From Tubulanus polymorphus (taxonomy: Eukaryota; Animalia; Nemertea), in contig NC_134033.1 in assembly GCF_964204645.1 (NCBI RefSeq), positions 10,424,655 to 10,488,654 of the forward strand: DNA of 64,000 nt, written 5' to 3'. The notes below the pieces were generated by a model. It worked only from the letters and a program-made list of their open reading frames with translations, had not been told where the DNA came from and searched no databases. This document shows positions 1 through 59,827 of the stretch, one piece after another. The translations under genes and the position numbers were made by a program. The stretch's first letter is position 1. Each line of letters begins with the position of its first letter.

Positions 1-1093
1 GTAATAAGTTATCTTCAGTTGTTCTAAAATCTAACCATAATGCATATTTATTACCGGTATAATAATCAATTTGATTAATGTTACAATTTTCAGATGATTT
101 CACTTTTTCATTCATAAAATGTTTTCTAATTTCTGGCCATTGATCAATCATTCTCATTCCTTGACAAAATATTTTATTCGCTATTCCTTCGATAGTTATT
201 TCTACTTTTGTTATTTCAGGATTATAATAATTATCAACATTTATTGCACCATTAGAATATGTTGCAATAGTAAAAAATATTAATATACCTTTAATAGATC
301 TTCTAGGAAAGTTAATATTCTCATTTATTATTTCATCATTTGCATTAATAGTTACAGTTTTAAATTTATCAATATAATCATATAATAATGAAAATCCTTG
401 ATTGTATTGAGTTTGAATTGTGCTAGCAATATTTTCATTAGTTATTGTGTTATATTCTAAACATATATTCGATAATTTATAACTCATATCTTTAACAACG
501 CTAGATAATACAATTTCATTTACAGGAGCAAATGTTATCTCAAATATAATATCTTCTTGAATTGCGTATTTATATAAAGGTGCATTATTATTTATCAATT
601 CAAAGTCTAATGGAATTTTATATTTGCTTCCATAAATCTTTTTAATCAAATTATCTGTGGCACGAGTTACTACTGCATTATTGGCTTCAGATCTTAATTT
701 ATTATGGTTTTCCGATTGGATGCCTTGAAATATCATATTATTTCTATTTTCTTTAGTTAACCATAAATCTTTATAATGCATAAATAAATTATAATCATCT
801 AATGAGAAAACTGTTTCCGGACCAATCTTTATTGTTAACTTTTTAATCAAATATCTTCCAACATTATCAACAACATAATTGTTATCATGGCCAGTTACTT
901 TTATATCGGCTGATAAATAAATACTGTTTGGAACATAAAAAGTATTTTGTGTTAATCGAGGGATTCTAACATATAAAGTTTCATCGGGATTAATATTTGA
1001 AGGGTTATGAGTAATTATATGATGTGATCTTTCTGCTTTAATAGCATTAGATATTCTATGATTCTTCGAAGGACTTATATAACTCCCACTCAT
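1..1093 (-). CDS. Major capsid protein (double jelly-roll), 3'-truncated by the window edge
   Basis: Manual translation from ATG at 1093 is open to base 1: MSGSYISPSKNHRISNAIKAERSHHIITHNPSNINPDETLYVRIP...NVGRYLIKKLTIKIG...YYNPEITKVEITIEGIANKIF...KYALWLDFRTTEDN. Beta-rich, with motifs I recognise from Polinton-like MCPs, and preceded by the element's TAAATG motif. Confidence 0.75.
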   Translation of the reverse strand, partial: MSGSYISPSKNHRISNAIKAERSHHIITHNPSNINPDETLYVRIPRLTQNTFYVPNSIYLSADIKVTGHDNNYVVDNVGRYLIKKLTIKIGPETVFSLDDYNLFMHYKDLWLTKENRNNMIFQGIQSENHNKLRSEANNAVVTRATDNLIKKIYGSKYKIPLDFELINNNAPLYKYAIQEDIIFEITFAPVNEIVLSSVVKDMSYKLSNICLEYNTITNENIASTIQTQYNQGFSLLYDYIDKFKTVTINANDEIINENINFPRRSIKGILIFFTIATYSNGAINVDNYYNPEITKVEITIEGIANKIFCQGMRMIDQWPEIRKHFMNEKVKSSENCNINQIDYYTGNKYALWLDFRTTEDNLL

Positions 1094-1137: not shown

Positions 1138-1932
1138 TTACTTGATATTTTTTGATATCATATTTACTAAACCAAAAATAATAGCACTTACAACTGTAAT
1201 TAAAAATAAAATAATATGTTCAGCAGCAAAGTTAATAATGTTTCCTGCAGATTTCAATATAAAACCAACAATTGAAGCAATAACTCCTGGTAAAGCTGCA
1301 GCAGATTTCTTTGATAGTTCCCATAAATATTTTGCTAATTTCTTTAAACCATCCTTAACTTTATCTTGTATAGAATTATTACCTGGAGGTTTATCTGGTT
1401 TGTTAGGAGTGGGAGTAGGAGTAGATTTCAAAGCATTTGATATAGCTAAACCTATTGTTGTAAATAACATAGTAACAGATGTTAGAATTGAAAGAATTGT
1501 TATTCCTTCTAATTTAAATAATAATTTTATTCTGTCTTTCAATGATATTTTAGAATCTGGTTTTATCAACAAATCTTTAAAAATAACTTTTAATCTATTA
1601 ATATTATAATCATATGATTTTAACAATAATTTAATTTCTTCTTTTTGTAATTCTATGTTATATTCTAAATCATCTTTTTCTTTTTCTAAACGTAATTCTT
1701 TTTGCCTATATTCTATTTCATCAATTACTTGATGATCTAAATCAGACTTTAATTGTTCTATTTCTTTATTTTTATCAGTTAATTCTTTTTCTAAAGTTCT
1801 AATTTTAAAATCTCTTATACTTTTATTATGTGCAATTTTATCAGATGCAAGTCTTATACTAATAATTTCTCTAATTGCTTTATCAGAAAATATATTTAAA
1901 TCTTCTAATTGTTGATTTGTCAAGTAATCCAT
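1138..1932 (-). CDS. Coiled-coil plus multi-transmembrane viral protein (probably the C-terminal part of a frameshifted gene)
   Basis: 264 aa with a long heptad-rich region, then hydrophobic segments (GITILSILTSVTMLFTTIGLAI; LPGVIASIVGFIL; IILFLITVVSAIIFGLV). Lacks the TAAATG start motif. Confidence 0.7.
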   Translation of the reverse strand: MDYLTNQQLEDLNIFSDKAIREIISIRLASDKIAHNKSIRDFKIRTLEKELTDKNKEIEQLKSDLDHQVIDEIEYRQKELRLEKEKDDLEYNIELQKEEIKLLLKSYDYNINRLKVIFKDLLIKPDSKISLKDRIKLLFKLEGITILSILTSVTMLFTTIGLAISNALKSTPTPTPNKPDKPPGNNSIQDKVKDGLKKLAKYLWELSKKSAAALPGVIASIVGFILKSAGNIINFAAEHIILFLITVVSAIIFGLVNMISKNIK

Positions 1933-2569
1933 TTGGTAAAAGTTTTACAGTTTGAACTTTATTTGATTTAAGTTTACTATTTTTGGAAGTTATATTCTGT
2001 TCAGAAGTTGTTTCTGTTTCTAAATTTTCATTAATTATCTTAAAAAATTTAGCATTTCTTTGTTTAAATTCTTTTATATTATAATCTCTTTCTTCTTGTG
2101 TAACATCAATTATAGCATCATTTTTTATTTTCTTAATTCTAGATTGTTCTAATAAATTAAAAGTTGATTGTGTTATTATTTTATCACTATTTTTAAGATT
2201 TGAAATCTTAAAATAATAGTCGCCTTTCAATTTCCAATAATATTCACCATTTAAAAATTTTAAATCTTCTACTAAATGATCCATACCTTTATTTGTTATA
2301 TTGAAACCAGATTTTTCTAATATTGGTTTAAATTTATGAATAATTTCATTATAATTGTATTCTTTTTCTGTTATTTCTGGTACTTCATTTTCAATACTTA
2401 TCTTTGAACGTGCTTTGTCAATAAATTGGGGTGTAGTTAAATTAGAATTATGTGCTGATTCATTACCATCATTAAAACTTGTTTCATCAAAATCAGGTGG
2501 TTGTTCATCAGTTATACCAGGTTCATCAAAAGGATCCATTCCAATATCTTCTACACCTTCTACATCCAT
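1883..2569 (-). CDS. Viral hypothetical protein with acidic N-terminus (probably the N-terminal part of the same gene)
   Basis: 228-aa ORF with the TAAATG start motif; overlaps the downstream ORF by 50 nt in another frame. Confidence 0.65.
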   Translation of the reverse strand: MDVEGVEDIGMDPFDEPGITDEQPPDFDETSFNDGNESAHNSNLTTPQFIDKARSKISIENEVPEITEKEYNYNEIIHKFKPILEKSGFNITNKGMDHLVEDLKFLNGEYYWKLKGDYYFKISNLKNSDKIITQSTFNLLEQSRIKKIKNDAIIDVTQEERDYNIKEFKQRNAKFFKIINENLETETTSEQNITSKNSKLKSNKVQTVKLLPNGLLDKSTIRRFKYIF

Positions 2570-2585
2570 TTATATAATAAAAAAA

Positions 2586-3887
2586 TTAAAATTTAAAATA
2601 TAATATTCCTCCGATTACAATTCCTATACAAGTTATAGCTAATTTAGTATTTTCATGGGATTTATTATCATCATTTAGTTTAATTATATCATGTTGAATA
2701 TTATCAGTTCTATTATTTTCTGATGTATTATAATCTTTTATTTTAGAATCATTATTTAATTTAATATTCTTAGTTTTAGTTTCTGTTGATTGAATGTGTT
2801 TTTTATTTTTTTCACCTTCCATTAAACTTGGAGCAGTAATAATCTTTTTATTTATATCATTCAATCCAAATGAATTATTTATTGTTGCAGTTTTAATTAG
2901 ATTATTATAACCAATTATATTTCCCATCTTCAATACTAAATCATTAGAAATAATTAATAGATTAGGGCCTATACAATAATTAAGTCTTACATGAGATTTA
3001 TCTAAATAATTTTGATATCTTATAATGTTTTCTGGAATCGATCTATTTTTATCATTATGAATTGAATCTTCAAATAAAACTTTAAACTGTTTCTGCGCAT
3101 CGAATGAAGTGTTATCATTTCCAATTATTGGGGATCTTGTTTCAACTTGAGCGCCTAAAATACATATCAAATAAATTCTAATAGATTGATTTATTCTTTG
3201 TATACCTGATTTTGTAAAACCTTCACTATTTTCTAAAATGAAATTAACCCAACCATTATTATTATCAATTTTATAATTATGATAAGCTGAAATTCTATGC
3301 ATATAATCAATTCTTTTTATTTCATACTCTTCACCAACACCTTGCAATTTACCATGCGCTCTAAAATCGGAATTAATATTTATATTAAATTCATTACATA
3401 TTTTATAAAACTTGGATATATTAATATTATTATCCAATTCTTTAAAATATTTAGACCCAGGTAAAGGACATTCTAATTCATTTAATATTATTCTGATTTG
3501 AAAATATGTGTGAAATCTAAATATTGTGTGAATTAATTTTAAATCAGAATACTTCAAATTTTTATCTAAGTTATTTAAATGATCATTCCAACTAATTCCA
3601 CATCCTGTTGTTGCACAATAAACAGCAAAATTTAATTGATTCTGCCAATATTTCATATTAGATTTTACTTTATATATATGATATTCATCTCGAGTAAAAG
3701 TAACTTCATATGTATTAAATATATTTTCCATTTTAGAAATAAAAAACTGTGATTCATTAACATAAATTTCTAAATTAGTTAATGAATTTAAAACTATATT
3801 TTTATATGTAATATTTTTCTTAAAATCTATTGCTGGAATATTATATTTAATTGATTTATTATATTGGAAAGCTTTTGGAAACCCCAT
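2586..3887 (-). CDS. Polinton-like hypothetical protein with C-terminal transmembrane anchor
   Basis: 433-aa ORF (WQNQLNFAVYCATTGCGIS, RFHTYFQIR, GIQRINQSIRIY); hydrophobic tail LAITCIGIVIGGILYF; TAAATG start motif. Confidence 0.8.
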   Translation of the reverse strand: MGFPKAFQYNKSIKYNIPAIDFKKNITYKNIVLNSLTNLEIYVNESQFFISKMENIFNTYEVTFTRDEYHIYKVKSNMKYWQNQLNFAVYCATTGCGISWNDHLNNLDKNLKYSDLKLIHTIFRFHTYFQIRIILNELECPLPGSKYFKELDNNINISKFYKICNEFNININSDFRAHGKLQGVGEEYEIKRIDYMHRISAYHNYKIDNNNGWVNFILENSEGFTKSGIQRINQSIRIYLICILGAQVETRSPIIGNDNTSFDAQKQFKVLFEDSIHNDKNRSIPENIIRYQNYLDKSHVRLNYCIGPNLLIISNDLVLKMGNIIGYNNLIKTATINNSFGLNDINKKIITAPSLMEGEKNKKHIQSTETKTKNIKLNNDSKIKDYNTSENNRTDNIQHDIIKLNDDNKSHENTKLAITCIGIVIGGILYFKF

Positions 3888-3903
3888 TTATATAACTAAA
3901 AAA

Positions 3904-4338
3904 TTAATAATTTATTAATTCTTTTAATAATTTATCTTGTTCTTCAACTGTTATATGACCATTTAAACTTATTATATAATCTAGTGTATTCTTTAATTTA
4001 TTAATTTCTTTTATATTAGTTTTGATTTTTTCTTTATTACTTTTTATATTTAATTTTGAACTTATACCAGTTAAAACACTTGAACTTAATCCTAATACAC
4101 CAATTGATATAGCTAAAGGTGTTAATGGGCTGAATATAGCTAGAAATGTTATTACAGAACTAATTGTAACCGAACCACTTATAATCAAATAATATATAAT
4201 TTTACTTTTTAGATATTTTTTCTTTTTTATCTTTAAGTCACTTTCAAATTCTAATATTTGTTTTTCTAAATATGTTTTTAATTTAGTTTTATTTATATCA
4301 TGAGGAATAATATCAATACTATCAACTTTATCTTCCAT
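3904..4338 (-). CDS. Small viral membrane protein (coiled coil, 2 TM, coiled coil)
   Basis: 144 aa with two hydrophobic segments; TAAATG start motif. Confidence 0.75.
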   Translation of the reverse strand: MEDKVDSIDIIPHDINKTKLKTYLEKQILEFESDLKIKKKKYLKSKIIYYLIISGSVTISSVITFLAIFSPLTPLAISIGVLGLSSSVLTGISSKLNIKSNKEKIKTNIKEINKLKNTLDYIISLNGHITVEEQDKLLKELINY

Positions 4339-4357
4339 TTATTTAGAATAAAAATTA

Positions 4358-4780
4358 CTAATTAGTAAACTTATAAGCAACAAATATAACAATAACAGTT
4401 CCACCTAAAATCCATATTATTTCATATTTCTGTTGTTCTTTACTTGGGGTATAATAATCTGATAATTTAGGTTTGTATAGATGTAATTTTTCTTTATTTG
4501 TTACTGCGTTATATAAACTCATTGCATCATCAACTGATTGAAAATCTCTATGTGAAATCTTCTGATCATATAATTCTTTATTGATGTAATCCATATAGTT
4601 TTGCCTCTTTTCTCTATATTCTTCTGCAGCTTTATTGTATTTCTCTAACGCTAAGTTATGTCTTCTTTGTTCTCCTAATGAACTATTTTTATCAATACGT
4701 TTAAATAAATAACCACCACCAGTAAATGCTAAAGCGTTAACAATTGCCGATCCTATAATAGTTATAATTGCAGAAGCCAT
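4358..4780 (-). CDS. Small viral protein with N- and C-terminal hydrophobic helices
   Basis: 140 aa (MASAIITIIGSAIVNALAFTGGGYLF...IIWILGGTVIVIFVAY); TAAATG start motif. Confidence 0.75.
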   Translation of the reverse strand: MASAIITIIGSAIVNALAFTGGGYLFKRIDKNSSLGEQRRHNLALEKYNKAAEEYREKRQNYMDYINKELYDQKISHRDFQSVDDAMSLYNAVTNKEKLHLYKPKLSDYYTPSKEQQKYEIIWILGGTVIVIFVAYKFTN

Positions 4781-4804
4781 TTATTTAACAAAAAAATTAT
4801 GCAT

Positions 4805-5026
4805 TTATATGGGAGGAATATATTTTTGTTTTTCCAAATAATCAATAGTTAAATTAGATAAAGTAACTGCTAATGTTAACTTTAAAATATCATTTATATC
4901 AAATCTATCAACATTAACACTTCCCATTTTGAATACTTTTTTTAATACCATTGAATAACCAACAGTTCCAACTGATAGTAATGAGCCATTATATAATCCA
5001 GTTATTATCCACTTATTATCACTCAT
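4805..5026 (-). CDS. Small hydrophobic viral protein
   Basis: 73 aa, packed between its neighbours; start context TAATAAATG. Confidence 0.65.
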   Translation of the reverse strand: MSDNKWIITGLYNGSLLSVGTVGYSMVLKKVFKMGSVNVDRFDINDILKLTLAVTLSNLTIDYLEKQKYIPPI

Positions 5027-5029
5027 TTA

Positions 5030-5386
5030 TTAATCAAAAAAATTACTATCATCAAAATATTTAGTTAACTTATTTATGATTAATTCAACATTTATTTCAT
5101 TACTAGTTTTATGATTATCATATATTTCAATTATTATTTTTTTAATATCATCGATGATAAAATCTTCATCTAATTCATAAAATCTTAAAGATTCTCTAAT
5201 TAAATTAGTAATGTTTTCTACATTTAAAATTTCTTTATCTATTGTTGTTTCATACTCAAATGTTGTTTCATTAGAAAATGCAATATTTTTGATATGTGTT
5301 ATTACATCATTAATGTTAAATTTCATTTCTTTCTCACGTTTAAAATCAAACCCAAAACATATACTCGGTCCAACAGTTATATTCAT
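5030..5386 (-). CDS. Viral hypothetical protein
   Basis: 118 aa; TAATTTTT..TAAATG start motif; abuts its neighbours. Confidence 0.6.
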   Translation of the reverse strand: MNITVGPSICFGFDFKREKEMKFNINDVITHIKNIAFSNETTFEYETTIDKEILNVENITNLIRESLRFYELDEDFIIDDIKKIIIEIYDNHKTSNEINVELIINKLTKYFDDSNFFD

Positions 5387-5402: not shown

Positions 5403-6161
5403 TTACTCTTTACATCTTATAACTAATTCATAAATTACAGGAAAGTTATTCAAATCAATTAAATAACCATTATGATTTCTTATTTCTAATTTAAAATTAT
5501 TGAAATGTGGAATACAAGGTTTGAAATCACATTCGGTTAAATTATAATTTATTTGCGTTCCAAATTGTTTGACATTTTTTAATGGTAAAATATTTAATAA
5601 ACCAGAATTACAAATTGTATCTTTAGTTGCTTCAAATGTTTTTGTAGGATCGATTAAATTGCAATGAATATAAAAGTGTGTAAAAGGTATTATATTTGAG
5701 TTACCTTCTGCGTATGCTGTAACGGTATCTGGTGCAATTCCTAACAGTTTAGCTAAAGGTTTTCTTATTGTAAATTTAAATTGTTCGTCATTAGCTAACC
5801 TAATCTTTATTTTATTAGAACTAGCACTTTTTAAAATTCTAATACTAAATCCGGAATCACTTCCTAATTTAGCTCGAGCTTTTCTATTAATTTCTTGTGT
5901 TAATGTATCTAAATTATATAATCCTGGTTTTAAATATATAAAAAACCATTTATTCCTTTTTTTGTAAAAGATTGAAAAAATTAAATGTTCTAGACTTTTA
6001 TCCGATATATTATAAAAAGAATTACATAAACTTATATTAACTAATTTTAAATCTACACAATTCTTGAATTCTCTATCTAATTGTACTAGTAAATTATGAG
6101 ATTTATAATTTGTAAGTTTTCTAGAATCAATAAATATTCTGTATTCTTTTAATTCTACCAT
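5403..6161 (-). CDS. Minor capsid protein (penton, single jelly-roll)
   Basis: 252 aa with typical penton motifs IFIDSR, SFYNI, PGLYNL, LAKLLG, FYIHCNLI, LEIRNHNGYLIDLNN..YELVI. Confidence 0.8.
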   Translation of the reverse strand: MVELKEYRIFIDSRKLTNYKSHNLLVQLDREFKNCVDLKLVNISLCNSFYNISDKSLEHLIFSIFYKKRNKWFFIYLKPGLYNLDTLTQEINRKARAKLGSDSGFSIRILKSASSNKIKIRLANDEQFKFTIRKPLAKLLGIAPDTVTAYAEGNSNIIPFTHFYIHCNLIDPTKTFEATKDTICNSGLLNILPLKNVKQFGTQINYNLTECDFKPCIPHFNNFKLEIRNHNGYLIDLNNFPVIYELVIRCKE

Positions 6162-6229
6162 TATTTATAACATAAAAAAATTACCGCTCATCACTAAAAA
6201 TTAATTTTAATAAAATTTTTCCTAAATAA
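6162..6229. promoter_or_regulatory. Divergent viral promoter region (penton / VLTF3-like)
   Basis: 68-bp intergenic region carrying AATTTTT..TAAAT(A)ATG-type motifs in both directions, plus CTCATCAC. Confidence 0.55.
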
Positions 6230-7528
6230 ATGGATGAGAAGATAGCATGCGAAATTTGTGGTGAACTTCTAAGAAAAAGTAATAAGGCTCGACATATGAA
6301 AAAACATGATGAAAATTATAAACCCCCTAAAATAAACTGTCCAAAATGTAATAAATTATTCTTAAGAAATTATGTTAAAAAACATTCAGAGAAGTGTAGA
6401 ATTAATGGCGCAACGGCTAATGTTGATAGTAATTCTGCTGAAGTTGAACCTGAAGTTATTTGGAAAAGACCTTTCTTATTCTATGATAAGGATAATGTAA
6501 AAGATCATTTCTGTGAGCCTTGTCAAGTAAAATATAGCCCTGAAAATATAGAAGATTGGGAGAATCATCAATTTCGTAAAGCACATATAGATAAAATTTC
6601 TAATAAATTTGAAACTGAATTCAATGAAAGAAAAAATAATTTATTAGAAAAAATAAAATATGAGAAAACGTTACCAGATAATAAAGAAACAGTTGAAAAG
6701 TTAGAAAAACAATATAATGAATTAACAAGAAAAACATATTATTGTAAATATTGTAAATTGATTATTACAACAAGTAATTCAAATCTACATAATAGAACAA
6801 TAAAACATAAAGAAAACGTAAGAAAATACCAAGAGCTTAATGAAGATCTATTACCAAGAAATTATAAACAAAAATGCCCACAATGTAGTTATGCGACCTT
6901 AAGGCAAGAAGGTACTGTGTTATTTTGTGTTGAATGTGGATGGCAAAAGAATTTATGGGGTGAAGAAAAAACTAGAGATTTTCTCATAGAACCAAAATTA
7001 AATTATCTAGATGAAATTTTTAAAATATTTTCTATAGAAGATCATACACCAGAATATATGCAATGGCTTGAAAAAATGAAAATAATAGAAAATAAAAATG
7101 GTGAAATAACTAAAAAAGATATTATAAAAACAATTATTCCACCAACATTTAACACAAAACAAAAGAAAATGTATTTATATTTATTATTTAACGATTATTA
7201 TGAAAAACCTAAATTAACAGAAGAAGATATGGATAATATAAAAAAAATATTTAAACAAATATTAATGTATCATTTGGAAAATAGAATAACAGATTCAATA
7301 AATTATGAATTCTTTTTAAATAAGATTGTAAATTATTTAAACCTAGATATTATAATTCCATTTGATGAATTAACAAACAAAAAGAAACAAAGAGAGCGAG
7401 ATGAAATGTGGAACAAGATAGAACTTTATTTAAATGAGAAAAATGGAATGGAAGAAGAACCTGAACAATTAAATGAAAATGAAGAAGCCAATAGTGATTT
7501 CGAGTTTGATGATATAGATCCATTTTAA
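6230..7528 (+). CDS. Multi-zinc-finger protein with C-terminal poxvirus VLTF3 (A2)-like late transcription factor domain
   Basis: Four C2H2/C2HC fingers, a zinc ribbon CPQC..CVECG, then PKLTEEDMDNIKKIFKQI..INYEFFLNKIVNYL..KKKQRERDEMWNKI, which matches the VLTF3 C-terminal pattern by eye. Confidence 0.7.
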   Translation: MDEKIACEICGELLRKSNKARHMKKHDENYKPPKINCPKCNKLFLRNYVKKHSEKCRINGATANVDSNSAEVEPEVIWKRPFLFYDKDNVKDHFCEPCQVKYSPENIEDWENHQFRKAHIDKISNKFETEFNERKNNLLEKIKYEKTLPDNKETVEKLEKQYNELTRKTYYCKYCKLIITTSNSNLHNRTIKHKENVRKYQELNEDLLPRNYKQKCPQCSYATLRQEGTVLFCVECGWQKNLWGEEKTRDFLIEPKLNYLDEIFKIFSIEDHTPEYMQWLEKMKIIENKNGEITKKDIIKTIIPPTFNTKQKKMYLYLLFNDYYEKPKLTEEDMDNIKKIFKQILMYHLENRITDSINYEFFLNKIVNYLNLDIIIPFDELTNKKKQRERDEMWNKIELYLNEKNGMEEEPEQLNENEEANSDFEFDDIDPF

Positions 7529-10500
7529 TAACCATAAGGTAATGTTTTTATACCATCATCTGAAATATGCCTTTTATCATCAAATGGATTTAAACTAGTT
7601 TTTTCAACTTCATTAATGTACATCTCATGATCTTCTGATCTTAAACAATTCATCTTGTGTTTCATTACAATTGATTTATATAAACACTTTATATAATCTT
7701 GAAATTCTATATGTTTATCAACCACATGTTTTGTTATTCCTTTTAACTTTTTAGCTTCATGATCTTTTGTTCTGTAACTATACATTTTACTTCTTATCCC
7801 AACAAATTCAATCATTTCATCACCTCCTAATTCATCTTTAAATTTACCAGGAATCTTTTTATTATCATTGCTAAATAGTTCATGATCTTTAGGATAATTG
7901 CTAAAATCAAAATGATGTTTTAATGTTTTTAAGTCTTTTGTTATGTCATTTGTCTTGATTTTTAGTATGTAACTGTCAGTATTTTTTGGATTAATGGGAA
8001 CCCAGAATTGAATGTTCCATCATCTGTTGATAAATCATAAACATAGTCAGTTGGGTTATATATTTCAAATAAATCTTTAACTTCTTCTGTTAATTCTTTT
8101 TCTACATGCCTTAAATTAAAACAATTTGGTTTAGATTTAATTAATTCTATATTCATATTAAATCCTAATGAACTGCATAACACATTTAACCCACTTATTG
8201 CACATTTTCCTTTCTGTGCAAAGGTTATCGTTTTATCCTTTATAAATTTTTTAGTACCATCGGCTGCGTAGAACCCAATGAAGAACCATTTTCTAAGATT
8301 ATATTCTGAATTTAATATATAATCTGGTACTATTTTTTCTTTAGTTGAAGTATTACTTTTCACTATTGTATGAATATAGAATTCATCATTATATTTTATA
8401 GCAAAATCTTTAGGATTATTTACAAGTATTCTATAAACCGCGGATGATTTCATAACATCCATGATTCTAAATGTTTTATGTGAATAAACTTCTTCACAGA
8501 ATTTCTTAATTCTTTCTAATAATTTTAAGTCTTGATTGCATAAATACCAACAATATTTATTACCCCAAACATATTTATACACACCTGCTGAACCATCACC
8601 CATGAAAAATCCTTTGATAAAATATTCTTTTTCTTCCAATGTTTCGGGTTCTATATTATAAATATTATCAATTATTTCATCAAATGACATATGATTCATT
8701 CTTGGGAAAAATCTTTTATGTAATAATTCATCTCCAATTTTTATATCAGTTGGTTTTATTTCATCACCATTTCGTTTAATTAAACTGTGGTCTTCAGTAA
8801 CATCTACAAATCCTAATTTAGTTCTAACTCTATAGATTTTCTTATTTGTTTTATGTCTAATAATATTCTTTAATTTTTTCCATCCATTTCTTGTCCAAAC
8901 ATCTATTAAACCATTTATTTGTATTAGTTCTTTTTCACCATATGAAATATAAGATTTATTTTGATTAGGAATTATTTCTGAAATTCTTCTAATTAATATT
9001 TGGTTATTGTATTTTAATAATATTGGGGTGTCAGCTGTTACAGAATCGAAGTATAGAATTTCTATATGTTTTTCCCCAAACAATGGTTGTAATACATTGT
9101 AATAAAAATCATACATTAATAATTTTGATATTTCTAAAACTGTTGAACCAATGAAAATGGGTTTATTAAATTTCATTGACGTTCTTTTTAATTTTACTGC
9201 TGTTAAATAATCTTCAAATCTTTTATTTCCTAAATGTCTAGGACTTGATTGTAGGTGTCTCAATCGTTCAGAATTATTTACTAATTCAATATCATTTCTA
9301 TTTCTAATATTTTCACATGTTTTACCATAAAAACTATTGTTCATTAATTTGAAGAAATCTTTTTCAAAATCTGTTTTTGATATGGTTCTCTGTTGAGTAT
9401 TGAAATCTATATATTTTTCTAACCACTTTGATTGATTAAATTCAATATATCTATGTACTTTCTTTAATTTCATTCCTTGTTTTAGATAAAATTTTAACAT
9501 TCTATAATGAACAATATAATTGTATTTATTATTTTGAGTAAGTATTAATTTTTCTGTAAAAACATGATCTTTCGGTTTTATTTTCTTCTGGTATTCACTT
9601 AAATAACTATCATCTACAGTTAAATGTTCTGGGCAATAAGGTAAGTTTCTTGTTTTAAACTTTATGTTATCAGGATATTCTAAATCAACTACAAAGAAAT
9701 AACCAATTGGTGCTTCATCTTCTAAACTCATAATTGCGCTTTCCCAATTAGTTTTATCATCATTTTCAACTTCTGTTAATATAAAATTTTTATATGGTTG
9801 AGGTTGCATCATTGCCCAACCATATAAATCATTGGCGTCAATATATAATAATTTATATTCATCATTTGCTTTAAAATACCTATCTCCCATAACACCACTA
9901 ATTCCACCTCTAATTGATTTTTCAAATAATAAAACCATATCTGGTTCTTTTAATAAATCTAATTCTACATTTGTATATTTTAAACCACATTGCCAGGTTA
10001 AACCAGGACTTGAATAACAATAACAAGGATCAACATTAAAATGATTCAAATTAACTTCTCTAAATTTTTCAAATATGTCAGCCAATATCATAACATCTGA
10101 TTTTAAATATAAATCAACTAATTCGCCATGATTTTTCATCTTAAAATGGTTCCAAATATTTAATGTTCTATTAAACACTTCGTCTTTCACATACTCCTCT
10201 TTTAATTTATCATAAAATTGATCTTTTAATAATTCTGTTACATTAAAATCATCATGTGTTTTATAAAATGAATAAGGAATTGCGCCTTTATATCTCAATA
10301 ATTTAAAATCTTGTTCATTTGGATAATAATATCGAGTTATAACAAAATCATTATCAACTAAACTTTTTGATAAATTATCTAATGAACTTGCTAGAAATCT
10401 ATAAGAATCTAAAAATCTAATGCAACCAAATTGAAATGAAATATAATTTTCAGATGTTTTAGCTAATAGTTTAAAATCATATTTTCTTACATTTGCTTCA

Positions 10501-12587
10501 TTCATAGCATTATATTCTTCTATTTCTTGATTAATTGCACCCAATTTTCCTGATAATTGTTTTATAAATAGATGGGTATCATAGCCTGATAAATTATGAA
10601 ATAATATTGGTACGAAATTAACTTTCTTAGCTTGTAAATTGCAATCTTCATGAGCAGCTCCACGATATTTTGAATTCAAATGATCATGATCTCTAACTCT
10701 TTTATCAAATGAATAAAAACGTTTTTCACAATAACAACAATGAGTTGCATAATTAAAATCAATTTCATCTTCTTTTGTCATAACTATTCTTTTATTTTTG
10801 TTTAATAATTTTGTAAAATCACTTTCTAATTCAATCATTTTATCACAAAAATCATTAACTACATTTTCACCTCTAAAAGAAATATATTGACTTTCATATA
10901 ATTCGGGATAATTTGATTTGATGTAAATTCCATAAGCAGCAGCTCTTTGATGAACTTTTTTAATTGTATTTATAATTGGCGGGTCTTGTATTGTGTCTTC
11001 ATTTAATTCATTTCCTTTATCCATTGATTTTAATAATTGCTTTTTGTTATATATTTCTTTTCTATCTTGATCAGTTAATTCTTTATTCAACGATTCAAAA
11101 TCCCCATAAATTACAAATGGAACAATATTTTTAAATTTATGATTAGTAAATTTCAATTTATAATCTTTTTCTGTTGGCATTATTAATTTACAAAAATCTT
11201 TATTATCACATAATTCTTTATGTTTTAATAATGTATTCTCAGTCATAAATTTGGATAAACATTTTCTACATAGATAAATTTTATTATGATGATCACTTTC
11301 TGTTCTAAAGAATAAATCAATTTGTTTTAACCACATATAATGTTCATTTTCATCTTTTTTGTAATATAACAAATCTATAGCATTTTCATCATCATAATAT
11401 TCTGTTAAATATAAAGCTTCCAATGTATAATCTTTAATATTTTCACCTTTTGTCTTTGGTAATTGCATTAATTCGAATACATTTATTTTTAAATTATTAA
11501 CTTTTTCTATTTTAGGAATCATTTTTATAGTTACTGGATATTGATCAATTTTATATAATGTTTCATATTTCCGATAATCTGTTATTCTACAAACATTTTC
11601 CTGTGTTGGATGTAAACAACTAATAATTGACCATAGAAAACATTTATTATCTTCATTTTGAACATTTATTACTGCTTTTGTTGTAAACGGTAATTTGATA
11701 TAACTTGATGCTTTCATATCCTTTTCTGTTGTAAAGTTTGAATCATTTTTAAACATTTTATTACTTTTTGATGTTTTATTCCTTTTTGTATTATAAACAT
11801 TTAAATCTAAATATATAATTTCATTCAATGTTAAGCCAGAACCCTCAAAATATCTTTCTTCAATATGACGTTTAAATTCATTTAATATTTTTTCTAACTT
11901 CTCTTTTATTTGTGTTTTTGAAATTATTTCTTCAGAGTGTGTTTGAATATTATAATCCATTTTTTCTTCTGACTTTATAAAACTTACTTTCCCAGAGATA
12001 CTAATTTTTGGATATTCAACATCTGTTATCAAATCTAGTATTTTTTCTATTATTTCATTAAATTTACTATAATCTTCTATTGTTGTACCTTTAAAAAATC
12101 TAAATATAATAGCTGCAGGACCAATTTTACTATGTAATGTTTCTAAGATTTCAATTGTATCTTTTATTTCTAGTGAATCAATATAATTTCTAATATTTTC
12201 CATGTAAGGTTTATTTGAAATGGATTTAGTTTTTGAAGTTGATTCTTTTACTTGTTGAGGTTTATCATCAAAATAATCTATTCCTAAAACATTATTTCTC
12301 AAATTTTGATGGTGTTTTTCTGTTTCGAGATGTTTATTATAATTCCTTTTTGTTATAAATTCATCACAAACTTCACATTTTATTTCATCCACATTCATAT
12401 TTTCTAATCGTTCTTTTCTTTCAATGGAATTTTCTGGAGTTTCAAAATCTATAACATTTTTTATATGATTTGAAGATTTTTCATGTTTAGATTTATTAGA
12501 TTTATCGATGTATTTTTTACAATATTGACAATAATATTGATTTTTATTGATATTATTGTTTTCTAGTTGGTGTTCATTCTCCCCCAT
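7525..12587 (-). CDS. Protein-primed DNA polymerase B, intein-containing, with a 1-nt frameshift at ~7982-7987
   Basis: ExoI YGDFES, ExoII FHNLSGYD, ExoIII YLKSDV, motif A YIDANDLYG, motif B KLMNNSFYGK. Motif C is split as YFD|intein|TDS. The C-extein TDSYILKIKT..PGKFKDE..EFVGIRSKMY..KLKGI..FDDKR..TLPYGY* (7980-7525) is in the shifted frame and includes ORF 7525..7815. Confidence 0.95.
7981..9044 (-). mobile_element. Intein with LAGLIDADG homing endonuclease (355 aa if one A is restored)
   Basis: Block A SVTADTPILL; block B VTEDHSL; block C FIKGFFMGDGS; block E FFIGFYAADGT; block F YVYDLST; block G LIQK(N)/T. Confidence 0.93.
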
Positions 12588-12674
12588 TTATTAGGAAAAA
12601 AAATTACTTGTGGTGATGAGTGTTAGGAAAAAAATTACTTGTGGTGATGAGTGGTGTCTCGTACTTCGTACTCT
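12588..12674 (-). repeat. Subterminal 31-32 bp direct repeat and putative Polinton terminus
   Basis: ttaggaaaaaaa(a)ttacttgtggtgatgagtg occurs twice (12591-12653), followed by gtgtctcgtacttcgtactct; composition changes beyond this point. Confidence 0.55.
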
Positions 12675-13266
12675 GATCTGAAAGCCTACTTTCCCAATTA
12701 CTCAAATTATAGGCAAAATAGTGCCCGTATATCACAGGAATAATGCCCCGTCGGTGATCCTGTACCCAAAAACTGACCTGATCAGAATCAAGATGGCTGA
12801 ATGCCGAAATCAGCAATTTTGCACATTTTTTAAAAATTTGCTTTCCAAGCATCCAGCCGCGTACGTACCGTATGTAACTTGTTAGTATAATATATACTGC
12901 ATACATACATGACAAAATAAATATTGTATTTAAATTATTGTAGCGATAAAATTAGTTGCAAGATTTACATATTTATACATTTATTGACAATGAAACAGTA
13001 TATAATGTAATTATCCGAGTTTTGTCAACGGTTATGACCGCGTATTTCATAATCGTTCAAAATCTATATTTCGAATCGTTTGGTCAAGTTTGATTTTAAT
13101 TTACCGGTGAACAATGCGGTTATTCGAATCAATCATCGCGTGGTGTCTGGTGGTAACACCAGTGATTGCAATTCCTTACACATCACATCACATCACTAAA
13201 TATCACGTATATACAAACACCACGCAGACTGGACACTTAACAGACGTAGTCCACCTCTACAGCGCC

Positions 13267-22138: not shown

Positions 22139-25100
22139 TTAGTTATTGGCGATTTTCTCATTGATCCAATCAACGAATTTGATGACGTTTGTATAAACTC
22201 CTGGTTTACCCCGCTGGGCGCAACCGTAGCCCCAGGAGACGACCCCCTTCAGCTCATAGCGTCCGTTCACTTCGCACACGTATGGTCCGCCGCTATCACC
22301 CTACAAAATCATTAACACGAAAAACTACGTGATCGTCTGCTAAAATCGGTTAAAAACAAGGGAACTAATTTTCGAATTTATTGGACGCCTTGTAAAATGA
22401 CATATATAAATATAACACAAAATATAATTTCAACCAAAATTCATTCCTGGAAATATATGAGAATTCATTAAATAGAAAATGAAATTTGATTAATTAGAAA
22501 ATAAACGCCAAAATATGTATGCATATTTTTCGACCTCGATATTAATGTCGGCACACCGACGGACACACTTCACCTCAGAAAACGCATAGTAGTTACTATT
22601 GTATTAAATGGATTATCATTGTGTTTTACGGCGGCAAAAATAGAGCAGCACCAGCTTCACTCACCTGACAGGAATCGTGACCTCCAGCTACATAACCTCC
22701 ACATATCATATATTCAGTGATACGTCCGTAGTTGTACCTGTTGCATTTATCTCTGGCTATAACTGGTAATAAAGCCTGTTTCAAATTACCGTGATTACTC
22801 GTTCCTAGAAAATTAGACAGTTTATAAATAAAATCGGTTAAGATTATTGAAAATTTTTTGCTTTATGGATGTGATACAGTTTGATATTTAGCAAAATTAT
22901 TGAGAATTTAGCTTTCATCAAATACAGTTTGATATTCAACCAAAATTATTGAGTATCGAGCTTCCATCAAATGAAGTTTCACATTTAACTGAAATTTTGA
23001 GTATTGATTCCGAAACATCATGTATTGTAATTTTAGATTTTGATTGCTGATGAATACATTTCGTTTTCATGTTGAGGGTTTTACCTTTCGTAGATCCCCA
23101 GCCGGTAGCGTAACATTTCTGTCCGTCGTACACGTCCGACGATGGTAAACAAGCAGGCCAAACTCGATCAGTCAGTTTTGCCGGCCGTTCCAGTTTCAAT
23201 AAAGTGATGTCTCGATTCGTTCGACTTTTGTCGTAAAGTTCATGGGCGAAAACCTTGGCCACTTGAATTACTTGTCTGTCCGATTCGCGGCGTGTATGCA
23301 TGCCTAAACCGACTTGATAGTATTTCGGGTTAGCGCCGCTAAAATGTAAGAATTCATGAAATAACAACAGGGATAGAAAAGCTACCCTTATAGGTCATCC
23401 AAAAACGATGTCGTGTTTCCCATTGCAATTGTTTCTCAAAGGCGACGAGGGAGGCATATTATTATAATAAACCTTGAAATGAAATATTTAGAGGAGGATT
23501 AAAGGAGATCGTCAGCGAGTCAGCTTTTTATTTTTGTTAACCCACTAAGGTATAAAATGCAGTTAAGATGGTATGAAGGATCGAAGTCACCACATACCAG
23601 AACAGATGGTAGTTGATATTTTAGTAAAGTAAAGTTTGCAGTTTCCAGCCCGATAAACACGTATTTCGATCACCTGATTTATTTGATAACATTTTCTCGT
23701 ATCTCCAAGCAAAATAAGGAAATAGATGATACGAACACAAATTTATTGATACGGGCGAGAGTATTCTATTAACTAGCATGAATTCTCACACTAAGACGCG
23801 GTAGTACTCATTGTATTTTTTTTACCCGATTTTCGTCAGTGGTTTTTCCGACGCACGCAGTGATGAGAAACACACGGTTTCATTTTTGAATGGCCTAATT
23901 TCACGATTAATTCGTTTAGTGCGTATTTATTTTTGCTAATTTTGTCGCTATGAAAATGTGTTTAATGTGGCGAAAAGTAATGTTTCGAGAAGGTATAAAA
24001 ATACCCTCGGTCCCCTTTCTAGCCCCATCTCTCACCTCCTCTCTCTCTCTTCCTCGTATCTCCTTCTCTTTCCCTACCCTGCCATCCTCATCTTTATTGT
24101 CCTCTTTCCCCTCCCTCTCTACGTCTCTATTTTCCTTCCTTCTCTCACTATGCCTCTCTCCCCCAGACACTAGTACAACTTACATGCCGATGCAATGAGC
24201 AGCGGTCACTACCCATTGAGGATGAATGAGAGTTCCTCCACAACCTACTCCATACATACGAACCATCCAAGGCCAACTGCCCGGTCGAGCTTCCCTGCCA
24301 CCGACAATTCGAAATCCGTCTAAACCATTTCCTAGAAACGGTTTGATCTTCTGCACGCCGCATTTACCGTTCCCGGGAATAATCGGTTCGTTCGTTATCG
24401 GAGCAGGAGTTGTAGCTGATAATAGAGAGAGGTAGATTTGAGTTTTTTAGACTCAAAAATGTATACAAATTTAAAATTTACTAAAATAGATTGTACCCGT
24501 TCTATGAATACAACTCGTTGTATGTATTTCATTAAACTTGACGCTGATTTCTGCAGAGAGAGTTCGTGCTTTATTCTAATTCTCGATTTTAATTCTTGAG
24601 AGAATTTCATTTCAATTTGAATCCTTGAAATCTATTTGATTTAATTCAATTCCATTAGAAGATCGCACAATAGACATGATACCAGTGCCTTGCAATTAGT
24701 AAAGGTTCCTATTATTTCACTTACTTAGGTCCGGTCCTCCTACAAACTGGTATTTGATACGGAAGCCCTTTGCGTTGGAACGTTTGGCTGTTACTGCCAG
24801 GTAAACGTCTCTGGCGTCTTTGATGCGCATTGTCGGTCCTTTATCGCCACAATAATACATATATCGGGACCAGGAACCTGAAAGCTTCTTATAGGTTATT
24901 TTCAATACATCATCGTTCATACGGCAACTGAAACAAAATAACAATGTTTATATCAATAAAATAAGTTGGATGAGTTGTGTTAAACCTAAATTAGTTCCTT
25001 TCCTTTTAATCAGAAATGCTTCCAAATTTAATTAAATTAGTTCATCAACTTTGAACTGGATTTTTCCACCTCCCAATCCATATATTATCATAACACCCAC

Positions 25101-28100
25101 AAAATATACAATATTATCCTTCTTCTACTCAAATATGAGTATGGTTTTCATAAATAATTGATTCATTTAAGAGAAAAGTTCATTCATTTTTAATTGAAAT
25201 GTAGAAGAAATTGGATGCGGACGACCAACCATCTACTAGCGAACCTTGCGGATCCTCGCCTGCCATACGTGGAATCCTCGATTGTCACAGTAGCACTGCG
25301 GGTCCCCATAATTGTCAACACGGTTCGTAAATGATAAACACTACGTTGTTTTAAGTGGCCCTCGATATCCCAGATGGGGAGGGCCACGTGTCCTACTCAC
25401 TCGTAAGATGCATATTGTTTCGGTATATCAAATTCTTTCGTTTCGATGACGACGTCATATCCGCTCGGCACGTTCAGCCACCAGTTACATCCTCCGCTTG
25501 GTAAATTTACCCTGCCGTAGTTTCTATGTGAGTCGATGGTGGCGCTGTGTTGGCTGAGAGATTTGCCACATTCAAAATACTCTGTACGTTCAAACGTAAA
25601 AAAACGTGATTATTTACAAAAATCTTAAGCATTTGATTCAAATATTCTATCTAAATCGTCATTGGGTCCGAGTTGTTAGATTGACTATAGAATTGCCGGT
25701 TTTAATTATTATTATTTATTTTTCCATTTTGAATTATAATAATCGTACAAAGTAATACAAATACAAAAATTCAAGATGGAGGGACTAATGAAGAAACCTG
25801 TTAAGGTTTATATGATATTCATGCCACCCTCGTACACCCAATCACACTCTCTTTCACACTACATTCACACTGAAAATATTTAAGTGCCAGATGGCAGAGA
25901 CTGGCAAGGTTATCGAAACATTAATTGAGAAGATACTGTTTGAGAGCACGTTTAAAAACTGGAGGGGATACTGATCCAATGATCTTCAGTGAGTAAGGTA
26001 AGTTATTCCAAGTTAAAGGGGCTGATACTTTTAATGAAAATTTCTTTCGATTGGTACTAAATTGTTCTACTTTGAATGCATGACGGTTTCGAGTATGATG
26101 ATGGTGAAAGTCGGAATTTAATGAAAAATAATCTGAAAACGAGTTAGGCAGTAGTGAATTCTTATATTTAAATATGAAAAAGCACAATTGAAATTTCGTC
26201 ATTGCTCGAAAAGTAAGGATACCTAAGTTTTTGAAGATGGGGGCTGTATGGTCAAAGAAGGTAACCTTCGATATTACCCTGATCGCACGCTTTTGAAGTA
26301 GGATTATTGGCCTGATTCTCGATTCGTAGTTATTGCCCCAGATAAAATTGCAGTATTGGAGATACGGGTAAACAAAACTATAGTATAAGGTTTTCATCAC
26401 TAAAACTGGCAATCGTCTTTTAACTCTATTCAAAACACCAATACTACGTGAGATCTTTTTACAGACAAATGATTTGTGGTCAGACCACGTCAGTTTACTA
26501 TCAATATATAAACCAAGAAATTTTGTGGAATGAACTTGCTTTATTGGGACATAACATTTTTCAAGGTTAAGAGACAATTTATTAACTTGAAACCACATTC
26601 GAAGTTTGATGAGTTCATTGTTTATCAGTTGGAATATCTTCTTATGATCTTTTGAATAAGCGAAGCATGTTGTGTCATCTGCAAAAAGGGTGAAGTCAAG
26701 AATTTTTGAAGCATTGACACAATCATTTATGAATAATAGATATAAAAGAGGACCGAGAATAGAACCTTGGGGAACTCCGATAGTTATACCCCTTCTTGAC
26801 GAGTTAATACCATTAAAACAAACAATTTGACTACGATCAGACAGGTAACTTTCGAACCATTTGAGAGGTAAACCCCGAATACCATAGTGATCTAATTTAC
26901 CGAGCAGAATTGTGTGGTTGACCGTGTCGAATGCCTTCTTTAGGTCTAAGAAAATGCCTATGGCTGAATATTTTCTATCGAGGTATGATGTTAGGGTGTC
27001 TGTTACTTTGGCAAGAGCAAGTGCTGTGGAATGATTTGATCGAAAACCGAATTGATTTGAAGAAATAACGTTATGTTTATTGAGAAAGGAGGATAATCTG
27101 TTAAAGACCAGCTTTTCTAAAATCTTTGAAAATACCGGAAGAATAGAGATTGGACGATAATTATTGAAATTTTCAGAATCTCCTGATTTAAATAACGGGT
27201 AAACTTTGGCTTGTTTCATGTCAAACGGAACAATACCATTATAGAAGCTACAATTAAATATATGCGATAAAGGAGCATTTATTAGATCTATTGTGTCTTT
27301 AAGTAAAGATGTACTAATACCATCCAACCCTGCACTTTTTTCGGATAAAAATTTCTAACTATAGATTCAATTTCACAAGGATTAGTAGGAAACATAAAGA
27401 AATTTTCGTTAGTACGATTTTTCAGATAATATGTGTAGTTGTGACCAGGGAAATCAGGTATAGTCTCAGAAATTTGTGAGCCTATTTTAGAAAAGAAATC
27501 GTTAAACCCACACGCAATGCGATAGTCGCCTTTGAATTCCTGGTTATTTTGTTTAAGAACACTAGGTAAAATAGGAGAAGATGATTTACGAAGTATCTGG
27601 TTAATAAGTTTCCATTTAAGTTTCATATCAGTACCTATATCGGTAAACTTTTGAGAATAATAATCAGATTCAGCTTTTCTTAAGATTTTAGTAAGAATGT
27701 TTTTATAAGAATTGTAACTATTCTTGACATCCACGGATGTAGAACGAATTGATTTCTTATAAAGTCGGTTTTTGTGCTTAATGGAGTTAAATATCGCTGG
27801 AGTAATCCACGGCTTCTCAAGGCGTTGTCTATCATTTAGTTGGGTCGGGAGAAGGGGGAAAGCTTCATTAAACGCAAGATTAATTTTATTTGAAAAATTA
27901 TGGTAGGACTGATCAACTTCTGAGCATGAATAAATATCATTCCAATCAGTGCTTAATATGAGTCTACGATACTTGGATATATTTTTAGCACAGTAAAAAC
28001 GCTTCATATTTTGTCTGTTATTTGAACAATTTAAAATCTTCTTGCACATTGTAAAAACAGGATAATGATCCGATAAATCAGTACAAATAATCCCGGAGGT

Positions 28101-29919
28101 ATGATTAACATTTAAATCATTAGTAAAGATATTATCAATAACAGTGGATGTGTTCGTGGTTACTCTGGTAGGCTTATCAATCAATGGAAAAAAAGATGAT
28201 GAAACCAGAGTATCCACGAACACCTCAGTATTTCTGTGCTCATCAAATTTGGATAAATCTTTATTATAGTCACCGATAAGGTAACACCGTTTGTTTTCGC
28301 GATTGATATTTACAAGTAGTTTTTCAAACTCTTCAACAAAGGGATCGAGCCTTCCTCCTGGGGGTCTATAAATTACTCCCATAATGATATTGGAGCGTTT
28401 GCCCATATCAATCTCGATAAAAAGAGATTCGAATGTAAGAGAACTTGGTGCGATATCGTTGCAGGTTTTATATTTCAATGAGTTCTTGATATAAAGAGCT
28501 ACACTCCACCACCCTGGGTTTCGATCCTGGAATTGAATTCGCTTGAATAACCAGGGATATTATACATTATACTATTATCATGGTCATCATTTGTCCATGT
28601 CTCTGTGAATCCTAGAACAGAAAATTTATCGGCCGAATAGTAGAGAAAATCCGTTATTTTATCAAAATTTGAATTGAAACTCCTGGCATTATGTGAAAAA
28701 AAAGATAAATTATCTCCACTTGAGAGTAATTCATTTTCGTCGTAATAACGACAGGTATTATTGCCTGATATATCAACCATAGAATAAATGTTCTAGTCGA
28801 GTGAACACATTAATGTCAACATTGACCCGAGTCGGGACACTCTTTCAAGAGTCTTATTCATCATCGCCATCTGATTCCACATTTGGTTTTTTCGCTAATT
28901 TTTCCGCACTGGGTGGAGAGGTCACCGATCTATTCTTTCTTTTGTTATTTGATGGCGTAGACGTAATGTCAGGTTTAAGAACAGATTCAAAGTTACTGGA
29001 AAGTGCCGACTTTCCTAAATCATTAAGATGCACCCCGCGACTATCACTGACGTTGTAATACCTATCTCGAATGTTGCCTGTAGGTTTGATGATCACATCA
29101 TTATTTATATAAATCATATTTTTGCTTAACACAAAACGCCTCCATATATCTATTTACGAAACCAACCGCTGCATTATACTCTTTTACGGTAGGAGATGAC
29201 CCCTTTTTAGGTATAATGCTTGATACGCAAATTTTCGATTTCGGGAAATGCTCCTGAACTTTCGCTAACCCAATGGTGAAGTTCATTTTAACACTGTCAA
29301 CATCGGATCTATGACGATTAATGTCGTTAGTTCCGAGATGGACCACGACACTTTCAACAGAATCGGGATGGGCAATATTTGAGCTAACTTTCGAGAGTAG
29401 TTGGTCGATGTATTCAACAGTTGCTCCTGACTGATGAATTACTTTTCCATCGGGGTATTTAAAATCCCGCATGTTTGAGTCTCCAAGAATGACAATTTTC
29501 GTGCCGGATGGTTGATCAATTGGCTGGTCAATTGAGTGGTCGATTTTAGTACTGTTCGAGCCATGACCTTCCCATGTTCAAAGAAAGGCCACTGTCGGAC
29601 CCAAATCATCCACGACGGTGGAAATAAAATGATATGATATGATATGAATTGCTTAAGAATCCAGTTCCAAACTCTTGAACTTTGGAACTGGATCAACGGT
29701 GGAACTAAATCCAGAACTTACAGTTCTGGGTCCAGTTCCACAGTAATGAGTTAGAGTTAACTCTGGGTTAAAAAGTCAATTCATTTTCAATGAGTTAACT
29801 CTGAGTCAAAATTAATTCACAACTGTGGAACTGGATCCTGCAGCGATTAGAGTTATAAACTTACCGGCGGCTGATTGACGCAACAATGCAACCAGAAAGA
29901 CAACAATCAACTTCGTCAT
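22139..29919 (-). CDS. Secreted CUB-domain trypsin-like (S1) serine protease, 7 exons, 408 aa
   Basis: Exons 29919-29865, 25581-25401, 24927-24725, 24415-24184, 23338-23085, 22804-22665, 22300-22139 with consistent phases and GT-AG junctions. Signal peptide, CUB, R|IVGG, TAAHC, DITLL, DSCQGDSGGP; S1 Asp suggests trypsin specificity. Confidence 0.92.
25700..29560 (-). mobile_element. Near-complete CR1/L2-type LINE in intron 1 of the protease gene (frameshifted)
   Basis: ORF1 SGNH esterase ([21 protein letters not shown]), APE endonuclease (GFTETW, YRPP, GDYN, IDNIF, SDHYP), RT ([26 protein letters not shown]) and an AT-rich 3' tail. Confidence 0.93.
29729..29837. mobile_element. Short MITE with GGRTCCAGTTCCACAG termini and CTG flanks; relatives at ~41540-41638 and ~49705-49807
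   Basis: ctg|ggtccagttccacag...ctgtggaactggatc|ctg. Confidence 0.65.
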
Positions 29920-58873: not shown

Positions 58874-59827
58874 CTGAATTTTCCAGGATTGGCTGACTGA
58901 AAAGTCAGGGTTCAGCGGATACACGCGAATTTGCTACTTCTCCGTATTTTCAAACAAACCTATTTTTTGCGATGCATATTAAAATAAACCCCGCTGAATT
59001 TAATTTGAACAATACGAACGCGCTTAAATCGCTTAAAGCACAGTTGACTTTTAAATCCCGAACGTCATCGATGCAAACCGATGCGACTATTGTTCTGTTT
59101 CGATGTTTCATTTGTCGTAATTTATCAAATATTTGATGACGAGATATCGACAATGGATAATTTCTATATTTACCCGACGTTTAGTCTGTTCCCACTGACG
59201 ACAACAACGACACCGAGCCGTCGAGTTTGAACCGTCATCACCATCAGCCCCATCCCCCTACAAGCCTTTACACGCTAATTGAATTCACTCCGCGTCCAGC
59301 CATTGATGTAAAAACGCTTTTAAGCTCGGGCGGATGCCGGACACAAAAGCACCGCACGAATTTTAGGGTTTTTACGATCCGCTCGCAACACAATGACGAT
59401 CAACGCTAAACGACATCGACGACTAATACGCAAAATAAACAGTTTCAAAATGGCCGTATTTGTTTTGAGGCTTTATGATCAGTGAGTATCGGCCGGGTGC
59501 GGTCTCACAGCGGTAGTCACGCAGGGCGCAAACCTGAACCGTTTTGAGAGCAATGTTTACCGCGTGATTTTGTTTAATGGTGTTTAAAGTGGGAATAATT
59601 CCGATTATTTACAAAGATCTTCAGTTTTTAGTCGACGCGGAGTAAATGGCAAAATGATTAATCTATCTGCATCTCTCTCCCGGTACAGATTCACCATGTA
59701 TCATGCGTCTGTTTACTTACTGTGGTTGGTTTCGCCATTTTTCCACAAATTACTTAAACACCACCAGGATGTTGGTGAGCTCAAAGCCAACGATTTGTGG
59801 AGCACCATGGTGCACTGTTGGTTACGT

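Follow-up and report, generated by a model that had tools for sequence, protein, structure and literature searches.

A LAGLIDADG intein occupies catalytic motif C of the protein-primed DNA polymerase of family B (pPolB) of a Polinton in the window, by which we mean the whole 64,000-nt stretch of Tubulanus polymorphus DNA analysed here, and splits the polymerase at D/TDS (a slash marks the insertion point throughout). In the reading that we hold with considerable confidence, unbroken copies of this intein are predicted to self-splice and likely spread by cutting empty copies of the polymerase gene, and the copy in the window is predicted to be inactive.

Anatomy of the intein and its frame break

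The insert is placed exactly between ILYFD and TDSYILK, reading from 9044 to 7981 on the minus strand (Table 1), which is where the preliminary description had located it, and every motif quoted there is present. Its proposal of a Polinton host gene is likewise borne out, as the interrupted protein is a protein-primed PolB by profile search (DNA_pol_B_2, PF03175, E 7e-20); the EndoVII/HNH-like insert assigned to the N-extein is based on an Endonuclease_7 match found in a relative (P0171). The profile searches that the preliminary description had called for matched the intein to TIGR01445 (intein N-term) at 33.8 bits against a cutoff of 24.5 and to LAGLIDADG_3 at 28.8 against 22.5, and to Intein_splicing at a significant E of 9.5e-7 that is under the gathering cutoff of that profile. 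A database (Atlas) search with the intein returned only generic LAGLIDADG/intein clusters. An AlphaFold2 model from a 51-row alignment had a pLDDT of 93.4 and a pTM of 0.92, and its best Foldseek matches were endonuclease-bearing inteins (TliVMA 7qsu, E 1e-16; PI-PkoII; PI-PfuI; PI-SceI), followed by I-DmoI. The insert combines the Hint fold, block A nucleophile and block B TxxH of a class 1 intein with the two acidic motifs and I-DmoI/PI-type fold of a LAGLIDADG endonuclease, and it is inserted at YxD/TDS in motif C of a family B polymerase, as pol-c inteins are. Sequence and structural model together confirm it as a canonical intein in D/TDS of a protein-primed Polinton polymerase.

Table 1. 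Features of the window, with positions counted from its first nucleotide
Feature	Positions	Strand	Remarks
Probable double jelly-roll major capsid protein	1..1093	-	truncated by window start; feature score 0.96-0.98 to viral clusters
Seven more element ORFs	1138..5386	-	intronless, tightly packed; no reliable family match
Possible minor capsid protein (weak)	5403..6164	-	DUF5901 E 1e-3, under cutoff
Zinc-finger ORF of the element	6230..7528	+	tail to tail with pPolB
pPolB C-extein	7525..7980	-	151 aa; begins TDS; +1 Thr nucleophile
Intein (Hint + LAGLIDADG, pol-c allele)	7981..9044	-	1064 nt; frame broken at last codons
Blocks F and G	7981..8045	-	block G from 8003; terminal Asn out of frame
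Homopolymer run at the reading-frame break	7982..7987	.	length varies in some other copies
Block F	8045-8025	-	
Block E, second LAGLIDADG motif	8253..8285	-	with Asp
Block C, first LAGLIDADG motif	8589..8621	-	Asp150
Block B, TxxH	8781..8801	-	Thr83 and His86
Block A	9024..9044	-	Ser1 nucleophile
pPolB N-extein	9045..12587	-	1181 aa; zinc fingers, exonuclease motifs, EndoVII/HNH-like insert, motifs A and B, first Asp of motif C
Right-end region of the element	12588..12850	.	depth from multi-copy to single-copy; GC from ~24% to 40%; terminus only approximate
Host trypsin-family gene	22665..23338	-	two exons, GT-AG introns; supports animal-type flank
Host LINE	25921..28559	-	endonuclease and reverse transcriptase; flank

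Two other identities were rejected. Hint domains of the Hedgehog type in animals share the Hint fold with the insert; unlike it, they contain no endonuclease, are not mobile and have no empty alleles, and the presence of both an endonuclease and empty alleles rules out such a domain here. A chance motif match is ruled out by the structural matches and by the confinement of the LAGLIDADG-like pattern G[FY][FY]x[AG]DG to the insert, where both of its occurrences in the six frames of the 64 kb are found.

In an unbroken copy, the precursor is predicted to splice by the class 1 route through Ser1, the Thr and His of block B, the terminal Asn and the +1 Thr, which would rejoin the catalytic D-T-D of motif C; the polymerase would depend on splicing, since its two motif C aspartates lie on opposite sides of the insert. 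The earlier claim that all splicing blocks are present holds up to block G and fails at the last codons. The break at 7982-7987 puts the terminal Asn and the C-extein out of frame, the length of the insert not being a multiple of three, such that the window copy has no in-frame terminal Asn or Gln followed by Ser, Thr or Cys. All full-length relatives (9/9) end in Asn, then Thr. As read from its sequence, the window copy would give a truncated polymerase and no splicing.

Reads were taken from whole-genome runs that carry one species label and come from two studies, one possibly of the source sample; a marine metagenome run (X5) held only short scattered pieces and was left out. Runs X1-X4 contain variants in the length of the homopolymer at 7982-7987, as do 36 reads of run X6, indicating that the frame break is not common to all copies, and an assembly slip may also be its source. 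Among related C-flanks, 8/37 have TNS instead of TDS and have thus lost the catalytic Asp, which, with the frameshift in the window, shows that many copies have decayed. One cluster (P0414) holds eight intein-bearing copies with TNS after the intein, a polymerase-dead subfamily that has seemingly been amplified. An internal deletion of ~340 nt in the 3' part of the intein (7987-8332), found in some copies in X1-X3 and X6, is one of several decayed forms.

Intein-bearing and intein-free copies

The preliminary description had suggested a search for alleles with and without the intein, and both kinds coexist in two families. Among the 15 listed of the 136 members of the P0003 family, seven carry the intein and five full-length members lack it with an exact gap of 346 aa, the exteins of the two kinds being 94-98% identical. 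The second pair, P0006 and the intein-free P0142, are 99% identical apart from a 339-aa gap. In this species, two joint classes of X6 reads, one of 38 (24 starts) and one of 37 (27 starts), connect the exteins directly across the intein, and depth in the same run is ~200-260 over most of the intein against ~440-735 just outside it. The three exteins closest to the window's (71-72% identity) also have an empty YFD/TDS site, making this a precise insertion for which empty alleles exist. Both catalytic Asp motifs of the endonuclease are intact in 10/10 full-length Polinton inteins. The freed intein is predicted to cut intein-free alleles, and repair templated by an intein-bearing copy would then spread it, with the numerous copies of a single nucleus, or elements that co-infect, serving as donors and targets. 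Spread from copy to copy by homing is likely.

Presence of the intein is patchy on an extein tree of 51 rows that were hand-picked to include all types with the intein: it requires 11 changes between presence and absence, eight of them forced by starred branches, and is no more clustered than in shuffled data, where 80 of 500 gave as low a count. Within the main polymerase class, the subclades of intein and extein largely match, so that an old entry with repeated loss could explain part of this patchiness. The preliminary description had taken congruence of the two trees as a sign against horizontal acquisition, and the comparison shows both this broad agreement and an intein (P0005) in a distant polymerase class. 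The P0005 intein is 47% identical to the window's, and its extein could not be aligned with the window's by BLASTP (best E 0.7). In the classes of PMC8502044, the window pPolB may be Beta-like and P0005 Alpha-like, a tentative placement taken from Pfam strength and non-alignability. P0005 is nested in a five-row Polinton clade (99/96) in a 34-row intein tree, and an AU test does not reject its position outside the other eight Polinton inteins (p 0.105).

The strongest competing explanation, which we nonetheless judge improbable, is a single old insertion in an ancestral Polinton polymerase followed by vertical descent and many losses, with no homing at present. It would account for the single clade of Polinton inteins described below and for the rough match between intein and extein subclades; by the AU test, P0005 need not lie within the other inteins, and the composition of the intein matches that of its exteins (GC 0.25 vs 0.23-0.25; GC3 0.155 vs 0.12-0.16). 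Vertical descent alone sits poorly with precise alleles of both kinds at 97-99% identity, with inteins still 47% identical in polymerases beyond the reach of BLASTP alignment, with allele differences focused at the site, and with intact endonuclease motifs in every full-length copy, as endonucleases generally decay without homing.

The focus of differences at the site could reflect escape of intein-free copies from homing. In the P0003 family, none of six copies with the intein (0/6) differs from P0003 within eight residues of the site, and all five copies without it (5/5) differ from P0003 at 7/16 site positions, out of 22-64 extein differences overall. This is an excess by binomial test (p 1e-8 to 4e-5) in which the five copies, representing three haplotypes, do not count as independent. 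The intein-free copies have four of the seven changes in common, and these could be donor flank carried along with the intein. Compared with each other, the intein-free haplotypes have 5/27, 4/68 and 3/57 of their differences at the site (p 3e-5, 0.017 and 0.048), and other 16-residue windows in the same comparisons reach 5, 8 and 8 differences. Motif C in 96 intein-free proteins of the wider P0003 group, probably from few genomes, reads DCDS in 39, DTDS in 20, DTDG in 18, DTDA in 13 and otherwise in 6; a group in which no intein was seen has DTDS in 26/27. Intein N-flanks of the FTD type, which characterises the latter group, number 0/44, and CDS or TDG occurs in 0/37 intein C-flanks. Against escape, the intein-free P0142 has site residues identical to those of its intein-bearing allele, DTDS is kept in 10 of the 12 proteins nearest the window, and one intein-bearing protein has TDA. 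In this species, 37 of the X6 reads that skip the intein encode the first residues of the C-extein with different synonymous codons. We regard the evidence as evenly poised on whether intein-free copies escape homing by changes at the target site. The fullest version of our reading, to which we give slightly less credence still, is a natural homing gene drive within animal chromosomes, in which a lineage once derived from giant-virus PolB inteins converts empty copies, jumps between polymerase classes and forces escape from the otherwise invariant DTDS to DCDS, DTDA or DTDG.

Relatives and origin of the Polinton inteins

In a search of longer proteins, six pPolBs headed the 120 matches listed of 326; all of them carry this intein in the corresponding position, P0002 coming first at 64%, and a search of shorter proteins added 47 matches, which are further intein pieces. 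The intein segment of 63 proteins, the window's included, is best matched by a Polinton intein, many of them being near-copies. The window's intein is most closely related to those of other Polintons (40-74% identity), and its best matches outside Polintons, at 43%, lie on MAG contigs of giant viruses. At the viral and metagenome loci, 151 of the 155 inteins excised are at YGD/TDS; no pPolB like the window's was present among these loci, and no Polinton polymerase was found in the best 80 of 471 and best 80 of 243 loci scanned.

Separate phylogenies of intein and extein, as the preliminary description had advised, gave the patchy presence described above and a single clade of Polinton inteins. 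For the intein tree, 381 non-Polinton inteins were reduced to 247 at 75% identity and then to 82 rows, made up of the 48 nearest inteins, one in eight of the remainder and every phage-like, topoisomerase or thymidylate synthase row; nine Polinton rows were added to these. The nine form one clade in this unrooted 91-row tree (SH 100), as do the Polinton inteins in the unrooted 34-row tree under LG+C20 (100/100), on a stem of 0.34-0.36 with no giant-virus sister resolved. The outgroups of the clade are mixed, comprising giant-virus MAG, T4-like phage, algal Pol delta and topoisomerase inteins, and are chiefly inteins of RNA-primed PolBs, many on giant-virus MAG contigs. Several members of the Polinton clade have the penultimate His replaced (Lys, Ser).

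One clade, a long stem and Polintons as nearest relatives point to one old entry followed by spread among Polintons. We infer that this entry probably came from the pool of RNA-primed PolB inteins, most likely that of giant viruses, because the diversity of that pool is far greater. The foreign origin and the kinship with giant-virus PolB inteins put forward in the preliminary description are supported, and its direct jump into this element, implying co-infection, is not, given the closer Polinton inteins and their single clade. Recent direct donation by a giant virus that co-infected this animal would agree with the shared site and family and with giant-virus MAG contigs as best non-Polinton matches. 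It is disfavoured, and we consider it very unlikely, as Polinton inteins are nearer (up to 64-74%) and form a clade on its own long stem, no giant-virus sister is resolved, and there is no compositional contrast between intein and exteins. For the older entry, a plausible meeting place, or route through giant-virus factories, is a virophage of the type of one hybrid contig (L161:6-12047), which encodes a Sputnik-type major capsid protein together with an intein-free PolB of the window's class at 37% identity.

The same intein family is found in other hosts. The green alga Chloropicon primus carries it at YGD/TDS of Pol delta (P0114/P0547; 4/4 cluster members). Type II topoisomerases and one thymidylate synthase also carry it (P0007, which has two copies, P0102, P0105, P0118, P0319 and P0025), so the family also moves to non-allelic sites. 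The inteins of four T4-like phage polymerases (P0013, P0014, P0017 and P0288) are nested among giant-virus-type inteins, a possible case of exchange between phages and giant viruses. One Polinton-type pPolB (P0161) is labelled Sulfurimonas sp. in UniRef and is probably from a mis-binned contig.

The element, its flank and known inteins

The polymerase lies in an AT-rich block of densely packed intronless ORFs (positions 1 to ~12,800, GC 21-27%), of which only the right end is inside the window, the left end lying beyond its start. The remaining window DNA has a GC of 32-55% and contains satellites, pieces of LINEs and a gene of the trypsin family whose introns are GT-AG, in agreement with the animal-type flank expected from the preliminary description. 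Some viral clusters matched by the capsid candidate carry Capsid_N or DJR-like Pfam domains, at a recognition value under the threshold of the tool. This ORF had no Pfam match in the profile search of the element ORFs, its single-sequence fold had a pLDDT of only 29, and neither a scan of viral contigs nor a comparison with one ORF of L161 gave a match. DUF5901, which we take to denote a minor capsid protein, was matched by another ORF. No integrase, packaging ATPase or protease was found among the 13 ORFs scanned of the element, which is truncated by the window start. Depth over most of the element is ~230-350x against ~21-23x in the single-copy flank, in raw reads under the same species label from another study, which identifies the block as a multi-copy family. 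Its assignment as a Polinton (Polinton/Maverick, adintovirus) has good but incomplete support.

The element likely sits in an animal chromosome. That the block is a free virus, a symbiont element or a mis-join outside the chromosome would fit the sharp GC step, the left end beyond the window and an element-host join present in this assembly only, with no bridging read or contig among those listed, and is very improbable given a window of 64,000 nt that contains no N, flanks with spliced trypsin exons and LINEs, and many diverged and deleted variants at ~10-15x single-copy depth in runs from two studies.

Several features of the neighbouring DNA were recorded. A high-copy palindromic MITE-like repeat lies just beyond the element (13387-13663, with 44-nt arms at 13444-13580), and a short stretch at 12765-12797 is common to another abundant repeat. 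A GDSL/SGNH-like ORF (29101-29577) adjoins the LINE and is possibly part of its ORF1. The host flank also contains an Arg/Ser-rich repetitive ORF of 396 aa with no Pfam match (34765-35955) and long satellite arrays at 46826-49278 (36-nt unit x69) and 59827-62029 (25-nt unit x88).

Among known systems, the 351-aa Mimivirus PolB intein at YGD/TDS begins with Ser and ends with Asn before Thr, according to PMC549080, in agreement with the pol-c site and the first and last residues given in the preliminary description. The Mimivirus and archaeal pol-c (position III) inteins resemble the window's in their YxD/TDS site, length of ~350 aa, Ser1, terminal Asn, +1 Thr and LAGLIDADG domain; unlike them, the intein described here resides in the protein-primed PolB of an integrating Polinton with many chromosomal copies and belongs to a clade of its own. 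Nuclear scaffolds of Klebsormidium, Tetrabaena and a labyrinthulomycete encode viral-like DNA polymerases that contain inteins (PMC10710043), and these are similar in being inteins of endogenous viral DNA polymerases in eukaryotic nuclear genomes. Those hosts are algae and a protist, unlike the likely animal host here, and the main text of that paper does not contain the words animal, metazoa, polinton or maverick. Nuclease domains inside Polinton polymerases are known as HNH and VSR inserts in pPolBs (PMC10748475, which has zero mentions of intein, homing or LAGLIDADG), and one sentence of PMC11071308 suggests that such inserts (HNH/GIY-YIG-type) 'result from intein invasions'. To the HNH, VSR and GIY-YIG inserts covered in those passages, the window adds a complete splicing domain that carries LAGLIDADG and lies within the catalytic motif, beside an HNH-like insert. 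A survey of eukaryotic inteins (PMC5784728) finds those of viruses most often in DNA polymerase (67/136); its passages on hosts name nuclear inteins of fungi and protists, plastid inteins of algae and inteins of large DNA viruses, with none in animals or Polintons. We found no report of a Hint and LAGLIDADG intein in a Polinton or animal genome in the literature searched, which was that outside subscription journals, Repbase, InBase and supplements. The intein lineage at pol-c of Polinton polymerases, found here in what is likely an animal genome, is real and apparently unreported.

To the fungi, algae, protists as well as large DNA viruses within the surveyed part of eukaryotic intein diversity, this finding adds animal chromosomes and protein-primed polymerases. 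It records a flow of genes into Polintons out of the intein pool of giant viruses, and also among Polinton classes that are far apart. Such flow implies that cells were shared, and it bears on the question whether the Polintons of animals travel as viruses. With many copies per genome, a history of homing and decay, and possibly of resistance at the target site, can be read from the family, which offers a natural model of drive and resistance. In addition, a nuclease that makes double-strand breaks in a repeated element could limit or rearrange Polinton copies.
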